A stretch of DNA of 11,026 bases from a virus (taxonomy: Duplodnaviria > Heunggongvirae > Uroviricota > Caudoviricetes), in IMG/VR virus record IMGVR_UViG_2690316285_000015; one strand, 5' to 3'. The notes beneath the pieces are model-generated. The model searched no databases. It was not told where the DNA came from and worked only from the letters and a program-made list of their open reading frames with translations. Numbering within the stretch: position 1 is the stretch's first letter; the number at the start of each line of letters is the position of its first letter. The position numbers were made by a program, and so were the translations under genes. Positions 9,670-10,232 of this stretch are shown piece after piece.

Positions 9670-10232
9670 TTAAAAAAGTACCACACCAATTTCATTAAAT
9701 TCACATTGGCAATTATATCTTACTGGACACTCGCATAATTTAAACACGGCGTAAGAGCCTTTAAGTTCTTCAGTTACGTACTTTTCCATAAACTCGATAT
9801 CATCTGGTTCACAAAAAAGATGAAATCCGACACCAAGATAATTACGCATTTTGTAGTTACACTGTCTTATAGCACTAATTTTATTTTTGTCAGCATTTAA
9901 GCCCCTAACTAATGGTACTACACCTTTAGTACATTTAAACTCAATAAAAATATAATCATCAGAGGGTGTGGATTTTTCACGCAGTATCAAATCTACTTTA
10001 GCAAGTTTACTATCAGGATAATCTATTGGATCGAGGTATATCGTAACTTCACGATGTAGCTCGTACTTCCTTTTTGAAGTTAGATAATGAGCAAATTCTA
10101 TTTGCAGCCACTTTTCCCAATCATTAGTTTCTTTTTTCACGAAAGAATATAGTCTTTTTTTTATCTCATCTTTCTTCAAAAATCCGTTCAGCAATTTTAC
10201 TAACAGAGAAAAATCATTGTTACGGTCTGACA
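9670..10232 (-). CDS. Putative PD-(D/E)xK-fold nuclease-like protein (187 aa from ATG at 10232; the ORF-track start at 10290 lacks an RBS)
   Basis: Spacing E46 ([13 protein letters not shown]) ... D81 (KVDLIL) ... E98-F-K100 (YIFIEFKC) fits the helix-E / beta-D / beta-ExK layout of restriction-endonuclease-like folds; AGGG upstream of ATG 10232; divergent from the small terminase gene with a 36-bp gap. Confidence 0.5.

Follow-up and report, generated by a model that had tools for sequence, protein, structure and literature searches.

We analysed an 11,026-nucleotide stretch of viral DNA (IMG/VR virus record IMGVR_UViG_2690316285_000015, Caudoviricetes; the window in what follows), in which a minus-strand open reading frame (ORF), here called gene X, lies between a conserved element resembling the cohesive-end site (cos) of phage lambda and terS, the gene for the small terminase subunit, which is read from the opposite strand (Table 1). 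X is predicted to encode a small nuclease, and related prophages either carry it at exactly this place (X+ loci) or have nothing there (X-less loci); the loci that we read are given L-numbers where they have to be told apart.

An earlier note on this DNA, made from its letters alone, had proposed a PD-(D/E)xK-like nuclease on the minus strand. The ORF behind that proposal is real and on the strand given, but its upper end had been set one base short, at 10232: reading 9670-10232 meets 17 stops, while 9673-10233 yields 187 amino acids (aa), with the ATG at 10233-10231 and the stop codon at 9670-9672. A longer form of X beginning at an in-frame ATG at 10290 (206 aa) was considered and rejected; it would overlap terS, and all homologues begin at the position equivalent to MSDRNNDF, which fixes the start at 10233. 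The 36 bp that had been reported between the starts of X and terS hold as a start-to-start distance, with terS beginning at 10269 and a spacer of 35 bp between the two genes. This spacer measures 31-35 bp throughout the clade of the window and 46-94 bp in a second clade of X.

Table 1. Positions of gene X, the cos-like motifs, and the packaging genes in the window
Feature	Positions	Strand	Description	Basis
Motif A	9579..9588	+	GGGTCCCTCC; family consensus AGGTWCTCC; like lambda cosQ GGGTCCT	Alignments of X+ and X-less loci and lambda
Motif B	9605..9624	+	CGAGGGTTTTCGGCAGCGGG; family consensus GCGAGTTTTCGGCACCG; like lambda CGCGGGTTTTCGC, which directly follows the cohesive end	
Motif C	9658..9666	+	CCCGCACCG; 3 nt from the X stop; ~32-nt AT-rich stretch between B and C	
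Gene X	9670..10233	-	187-aa stand-alone PD-(D/E)xK-fold nuclease (predicted); E46, D81, E98-x-K100; CxC-x5-CxC at residues 167-177	
X-terS divergent spacer	10234..10268	.	35 bp; must contain the ribosome-binding sites of both genes and, at least in part, their promoters	Sequence
terS	10269..10814	+	Small terminase subunit (Nu1/DUF1441-like, N-terminal helix-turn-helix, HTH)	PHROG 57 'terminase small subunit', 1.3e-22
terL (large terminase gene), 5' fragment	10729..10992	+	GpA-type, ~88 codons, cut by an insertion sequence	ORF; 88-99% identity to the terL N-terminus of L001 and L007
IS3-family terminal repeat	10993..11026	.	IS911/ISEc52-like; interrupts terL	100% identical to the IS911 terminus of phage Sf6 and to E. 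coli IS3-like elements

Fold and family of X

The predicted structure of X places it in the PD-(D/E)xK superfamily. The AlphaFold2 model, built on a seven-sequence alignment (predicted local distance difference test, pLDDT, 89.3; predicted template modelling score, pTM, 0.85), contains the restriction-endonuclease-like core that the earlier note had supposed, in the canonical alpha-beta-beta-beta-alpha-beta arrangement: helix 40-53 (with E46), strand 57-67, strand 77-86 (D81), strand 93-102 (E98 and K100), helix 105-120, and strand 122-138. The catalytic residues are found at their canonical places, with D on strand 2, (D/E)xK on strand 3, and an acidic residue on helix 1, all of them conserved in the family. 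E46, D81, E98, and K100 sit where the note had put them and are invariant both in the six close homologues and in a 79-sequence alignment that reaches down to ~20% identity, in which the invariant columns are E40, W42, E46, D81, E98, K100, and D115, so the motif is no chance match.

Most matches of X in BFVD are PD-(D/E)xK nucleases, and its closest structural neighbours are sequence-specific restriction enzymes and the nuclease CinB, not resolvases. A Foldseek search against the PDB returned nothing at E <= 1e-3, and the sequence profile of X had zero matches in the PDB. Pfam, PHROGs, PADLOC, and NCBIfam gave no usable match to X, only noise (COX5A and HypA at E > 0.04), and Pfam run on the 79 family members returned just two marginal TnsA_N matches and nothing meaningful. 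In a word-indexed search of 5.8e9 proteins, X matched only six clusters (53-95% identity); a profile search of 1.84e9 cluster representatives at E <= 1e-3 found 187 relatives, mostly of ~180 aa. The ratio of nonsynonymous to synonymous substitution rates (dN/dS) of X is 0.11-0.18, in the same range as that of terS, which indicates that X is maintained by purifying selection.

We consider it very probable that X is an active nuclease and the representative of a new PD-(D/E)xK family. If it is active, the restriction-endonuclease superfamily gains a family of ~190 representative clusters at 50% identity for which the libraries searched hold no model. The family itself, its cysteine-knuckle variant, the slot between the cos-like element and terS, and the family of host elements are all undescribed in the libraries and literature searched, while the fold and the chemistry are of a known kind.

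Among the known systems closest to X are the Type IIP restriction endonucleases of the BglII/BamHI/BstYI/SwaI/BglI structural group, from which X differs in showing no detectable sequence similarity and in adding an N-terminal three-helix region and, in its own subfamily, the CxC-x5-CxC tail. No methyltransferase gene stands next to X, either among its neighbours in the window or at any related locus read, so X does not qualify as part of a type II restriction-modification system. The nuclease domain of Wolbachia CinB (7esz) resembles X at the level of the fold only; the 659 residues of CinB include tandem nuclease domains and CinB has a cognate partner, CinA, while X is a single 187-aa gene without a partner.

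The cysteine-rich C-terminus that the earlier note had pointed out is present at residues 167-179. C167, C169, C175, and C177 are invariant in the close subgroup only, that is, in the six close homologues; the cluster is specific to the subfamily of the window, is missing from most of the wider family, and is the least confident region of the model (block pLDDT 61). One might guess that the four-cysteine knuckle binds metal, probably zinc. It does not fit the arrangement of the Cas4/AddB iron-sulfur exonucleases, in which one N-terminal cysteine and a C-terminal CxxC...C surround the nuclease core.

The wider family extends beyond phages. Among the best 80 of at least 234 loci with distant members, which were the ones read, X relatives of 20-38% identity stand directly downstream of WYL regulators at four (L155, L202, L208, and L218). 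Toxin-antitoxin modules and SIR2, RNase_T, ZorA-like, AriA, RdrAB, pAgo-nuclease, and mad3/8 genes are scattered among the other neighbours; many neighbours are housekeeping genes, and the defence neighbours are raw counts. Chromosomal, non-phage sites include the interval between obg and cysS, a position after aconitase, and a gst-esterase locus in Kosakonia. No conserved partner was found among 142 ORFs neighbouring the distant members. Four high-GC metagenome contigs (L204, L206, L214, and L216) hold distant X-like genes at ~5800-6540. In L204 and L216 the opposite-strand neighbour of X is a small terminase gene, which Pfam assigns to Terminase_2 in L204; next comes a terL-like gene that is homologous in all four contigs and is assigned to Terminase_6N in L204. 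L204, L206, and L216 have a divergent ATG ~125 nt upstream of X; the support for L214 is its terL homology only. Taken together, the WYL-associated, defence-rich, and two-terminase contexts make the X family a candidate single-gene system against phages or other elements, or a candidate packaging-site nuclease.

The cos-like element and the slot of X

Directly beyond the stop codon of X lies a conserved non-coding element of ~95 bp (9579-9666) that resembles cos, and X thus stands between this element and terS. The earlier note had expected cos in the 35-bp gap between X and terS; the conserved cos-like element is instead on the other side of the gene. The pair GGGTCCC and CGAGGGTTTTCG is similar to GGGTCCT and CGCGGGTTTTCG of lambda, yet the spacing is ~17 nt shorter than in lambda. 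From these sequence features we infer that the element formed by motifs A, B, and C may be the cos region of these phages. The ends of IMG/VR contigs that begin near terS showed no common start point from which the genome termini could be read. A tblastn search of a phage collection with X and with the terS of the window found no record with either, so there is no sequenced virion usable for placing the genome ends.

The order of motif A, motif B, AT-rich stretch, and motif C is kept in X+ and X-less loci alike, and in the X-less loci the element abuts terS, which makes X an insertion between motif C and terS. The window and its relatives are homologous at the DNA level only as far as ~9578-9610, and the genes of ~110 aa beyond this point are unrelated between loci, which means that a variable cargo zone ends at motif A and that X lies on the conserved side. 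The genes of ~110-126 aa just beyond the element have no homology to one another across loci, so none of them is a conserved partner of X.

Motif C distinguishes the two kinds of locus. The window holds one exact copy of the 9-mer, and L001-L008 and L013-L018 each have a single copy immediately beyond the stop codon of X. Of the 48 X+ loci in IMG/VR, 36 have exact CCCGCACCG at a distance of 2-12 nt from this stop codon, down to X identities of ~33%. X-less loci have variable versions of motif C, 20-170 nt upstream of terS, and even those whose terS HTH is almost identical to that of X+ loci are without exact CCCGCACCG. A Pectobacterium-like subclade of X+ loci has a different motif, CCCGAACCG, which X-less loci carry too. 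Two explanations of motif C were considered. A part in a terminator hairpin of X was rejected, since a stem between motifs B and C forms only in the window, L001, and L007, not in L002, L003, and others, and a U-tract is absent. That terS recognizes motif C and that the motif evolves along with the terS HTH finds no support, since near-identical HTHs in X+ and X-less loci go with differing versions of motif C.

The zone beyond motif A contains reverse transcriptases and DuOB, DUF488, and SLOG genes among the relatives, and in the window it contains an HNH protein weakly like type IV restriction enzymes. In an X-less relative integrated in ybhA of E. coli (L019, NZ_CM132639), an ATP-dependent nuclease of the Old family is encoded at 11589-13409 (PADLOC Old, 4.7e-75). 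This gene adjoins the cos-like element, in a zone whose behaviour is that of the defence hotspots found beside cos in P2 and P4. The old gene of L019 lies beyond motif A and not between motif C and terS, and was rejected as an occupant of the X slot; a 187-aa ORF of the same element is not homologous to X and was likewise rejected as its counterpart.

We read the best 80 of at least 94 loci of the terS family. As the earlier note had suggested looking for, the synteny is conserved: X, divergent from terS and terL, is found in 46 of the 48 IMG/VR loci that carry X, and the same layout holds at every locus read with a close or mid-distance homologue. Of 76 evaluable loci of the terS family, 40 carry X and 36 are without it. 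Carriers and non-carriers are mixed on the terL tree, which calls for ~12 gains or losses; a few of the loci counted have an upstream stretch too short for proper scoring. X is also missing from an apparently complete E. coli prophage (terS 69% identical to that of the window), and truncated copies of X occur among the relatives. Absence from nearly half of the loci, the complete X-less prophage, and the truncated copies together indicate that X is dispensable for packaging. The earlier note had entertained a tie of X to packaging or end processing; an essential part in packaging, end processing, or cos cleavage is unlikely for this reason and because X is transcribed opposite to the late operon and the GpA-type terL has a nuclease domain of its own.

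Where X is present, its divergence follows that of the packaging genes. X identity tracks the identity of terS and terL in all 36 pairs compared; it is 55-95% within the clade of the window and 33-36% between the two clades, across which the C-terminal part of terS and the N-terminus of terL are 30-37% identical. The synonymous divergence (dS) of X is equal to or greater than that of terS. In pairs that are 93-96% identical over terS-terL, the X+ allele differs by a block swap comprising motif C, X, and the first 8-50 codons of terS. These patterns in the sequences describe X as apparently either an old resident that has been lost repeatedly or a gene that moves together with its flanks.

The short spacer leaves little room for control signals. 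In the second clade (L014, L017, L040, and L044-L063), a conserved TTAAAGTATTTAT-N7-TGCCGATAAT (TTAAAG-17-GATAAT) lies 26-36 nt upstream of the X ATG and is plausibly a sigma70 promoter pointing at X, or else an operator. It is absent from the 35-bp spacer of the window, and with spacers of 31-35 bp any X promoter in the clade of the window would overlap the first codons of terS. A sigma70-like CTGACA-16-TAAAAT at 10227-10254 points towards terS (10/12 match); taken overall, the consensus scan showed no enrichment relative to shuffled sequence.

Possible roles of X

The reading that we favour, although tentatively and at somewhat less than even confidence, is that X is a conflict or defence nuclease that acts in exclusion and may be expressed independently of the late operon. 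X would be a small, stand-alone, metal-dependent DNA endonuclease of the PD-(D/E)xK superfamily, inserted as a single gene between the cos-like signal and terS of a temperate element. The resident element would make X in the lysogen or early in infection, and X would then cut incoming or competing DNA, resulting in exclusion or defence. Late transcription that enters through the cos-like region would run antisense to X, oppose its expression, and might silence X while the element packages its own DNA.

This reading draws on the dispensability of X, its orientation against the late operon, its apparent own promoter, the defence and WYL neighbourhoods of its family, and the precedent of P2 and P4, which carry anti-phage hotspots adjacent to cos with old, tin, PARIS, and others (PMC9122126). 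Those hotspots resemble the present elements in that a temperate element keeps accessory conflict genes by cos, and their equivalent here is the zone beyond motif A. In contrast, X adjoins the cos-like element on the side that faces terS, occupies a slot that holds X or nothing, and co-diverges with the packaging genes, and its role in defence is putative.

Several observations weigh against a conflict nuclease. A search of X against the defence models of PADLOC-DB 2.0 returned no family at E <= 0.1, and a solitary nuclease with neither a methylase nor an immunity partner would need some unexplained means of telling self from non-self. The slot between motif C and terS never holds other cargo, unlike a true hotspot, and the co-divergence of X with terS and terL suggests a long-resident, element-specific function rather than mobile cargo. 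The exact CCCGCACCG is shared by very divergent X+ loci and never seen in X-less ones. Divergence of X from terS recurs beside an unrelated Terminase_2/Terminase_6N terminase, a hint that X is connected with the beginning of the packaging operon. Finally, the clade of the window shows no convincing X promoter, only weak candidates that are conserved in position.

X might alternatively be a free-standing, selfish endonuclease of the homing type, which would cut X-less cos/terS junctions when two elements reside in one cell and be copied in with its flanks by recombinational repair. PD-(D/E)xK homing enzymes exist (I-Ssp6803I), and X shares with I-Ssp6803I and the T4 Seg/Mob enzymes a tight insertion (no obvious terminator and, in the clade of the window, the short spacer), presence or absence at one exact intergenic site between highly conserved sequences (40 versus 36 loci), and replacement of a flanking block, here resembling a co-conversion tract. 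The patchy distribution of X on the terL tree, the decayed copies, and the presence of other homing-type genes in the same elements (NUMOD4 with HNH_3, and SegE-like GIY-YIG) point the same way. We nevertheless regard homing as unlikely. X is not phylogenetically incongruent with its flanks: its divergence matches or exceeds theirs, in percent identity as in dS, and there is thus no sign of recent horizontal sweeps. Strong purifying selection acts on X throughout, the family is also found at chromosomal, non-phage sites, for example after WYL regulators, and X has no separate or accessory DNA-binding module, while ordinary mosaicism of phage modules would explain the block replacement equally well.

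It is also conceivable, but in our judgement distinctly unlikely, that X acts on the packaging site itself as a site-specific nuclease or nickase for the cos-like element (e.g., CCCGCACCG), either to aid the cos processing of its own element or to destroy the site of rivals and satellites. HNH endonucleases encoded beside terminase genes are needed for cos cleavage in HK97-like and staphylococcal cos phages, and these enzymes (HK97 gp74 and the staphylococcal phi12/phiSLT type) are likewise products of small nuclease genes next to terS and cos. The placement of X, which in 46 of 48 loci has the cos-like element on one side and terS on the other, the exact 9-mer by its stop codon in 36 of 48 X+ loci and in none of the X-less relatives, its co-divergence with both terminase genes, and the same divergent layout next to an unrelated Terminase_2 terS would all fit such a role. 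X differs from the HNH enzymes in its PD-(D/E)xK fold, its opposite strand, its pairing with a terL of the GpA type, itself equipped with a nuclease domain, and its occurrence at only 40 of 76 loci, and the X-less half of this terS/terL family includes the apparently complete E. coli prophage. Moreover, the Pectobacterium-like X+ subclade has CCCGAACCG instead, as do X-less loci, and the co-occurrence of X with the 9-mer can stem from inheritance as a block. More narrowly, X and the adjacent invariant 9-mer could form a functional pair, in which X would be either a second layer of control on cos processing or a blocker or cutter of the packaging sites of X-less elements and satellites; we hold this to be a long shot. 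If it is true, warfare over packaging sites could explain why X-like genes stand divergent from terS in two unrelated terminase systems.

A structure-specific or housekeeping nuclease (for junction resolution, recombination and repair, or degradation of host DNA) or an anti-defence enzyme is very unlikely, given that the best structural neighbours are restriction enzymes and CinB rather than resolvases, that X is optional, that no partner recombination genes accompany it, that its orientation and position are atypical of replication or recombination modules, and that, to our knowledge, there is no PD-(D/E)xK anti-defence enzyme.

Host element and other genes of the window

The window is closest to a Buttiauxella metagenome-assembled genome (MAG), with 95.7% DNA identity over 9578-10993 and an X protein that is 95% identical. 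Carriers of X are temperate serine-recombinase prophages of Enterobacterales, ~31-40 kb long with a lambda-type terminase, and the IMG/VR contigs bearing the element are mostly of 31-40 kb as well. Their gene order begins with a large serine recombinase, small ORFs, a NUMOD4/HNH_3 gene, a protein of 460-980 aa, and the variable cargo zone, followed by X on the opposite strand; then come terS (DUF1441/Nu1-like), a GpA-type terL, the portal gene, a protease-capsid fusion, head-tail genes, and tail genes. These host elements form an enterobacterial serine-recombinase prophage family that has no sequenced phage representative and possesses a precise slot that is filled by X or empty.

The packaging genes of the window are recognizable but damaged. 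Its terS matches Pfam Phage_Nu1 weakly (7.6e-5, below the curated cut-off) and is 69% identical to an E. coli gene annotated 'terminase small subunit'; the E. coli match to the terL fragment is annotated 'terminase gpA endonuclease subunit', and the intact terL of relatives has GpA_ATPase and GpA_nuclease domains. Since the IS3-family end cuts terL after ~88 codons, the prophage in the window is defective and cannot package. Upstream of the cos-like element, a run of 20 N (9324-9343) lies inside a perfect 73-nt inverted repeat (9250-9322 and 9403-9475), a fold-back (9250-9475) that looks like a scaffold join or an assembly artefact; the left 9.3 kb and the right 1.7 kb of the window are therefore joined by inference only. 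The same region truncates the 5' end of a plus-strand ORF at 9357-9524.

At the left edge of the window, which cuts the gene, 103-1038 encodes the C-terminal part (~300 residues) of a large serine recombinase (Zn_ribbon_recom), 23% identical to residues 278-576 of the recombinase of a Yersinia element. A free-standing, homing-type NUMOD4 and HNH_3 endonuclease gene follows at 2706-3260, at the same position as in related elements, some of which have a SegE-like GIY-YIG gene in its place or besides it. The 247-aa protein encoded at 4307-5050 has a C-terminal HNH domain and weak likeness to type IV methyl-directed or phosphorothioate-dependent restriction enzymes (PADLOC mREase_IV, 4.7e-7; NCBIfam PT-DNA_restrict, 1.3e-3); it is possibly a defence gene in the cargo zone, and L007 holds a relative of it at ~70% DNA identity.

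A 2.9-kb contig (L008, DKIT01000016.1) with an 87%-identical X-terS block is binned as Sphingobacterium sp., an assignment that is probably a binning error in the MAG because the relatives are enterobacterial. Unannotated ORFs make up the cargo zone of the window at 5133-9270. Among them, 7168-7719 has a weak match to the C-terminus of an EAL-type cyclic di-GMP phosphodiesterase (NF008617, 2.7e-5), 7725-8087 is a lipoprotein-like ORF in a stretch with 75-76% DNA identity to L001 and L007, and 8470-8910 is a multi-pass membrane ORF.

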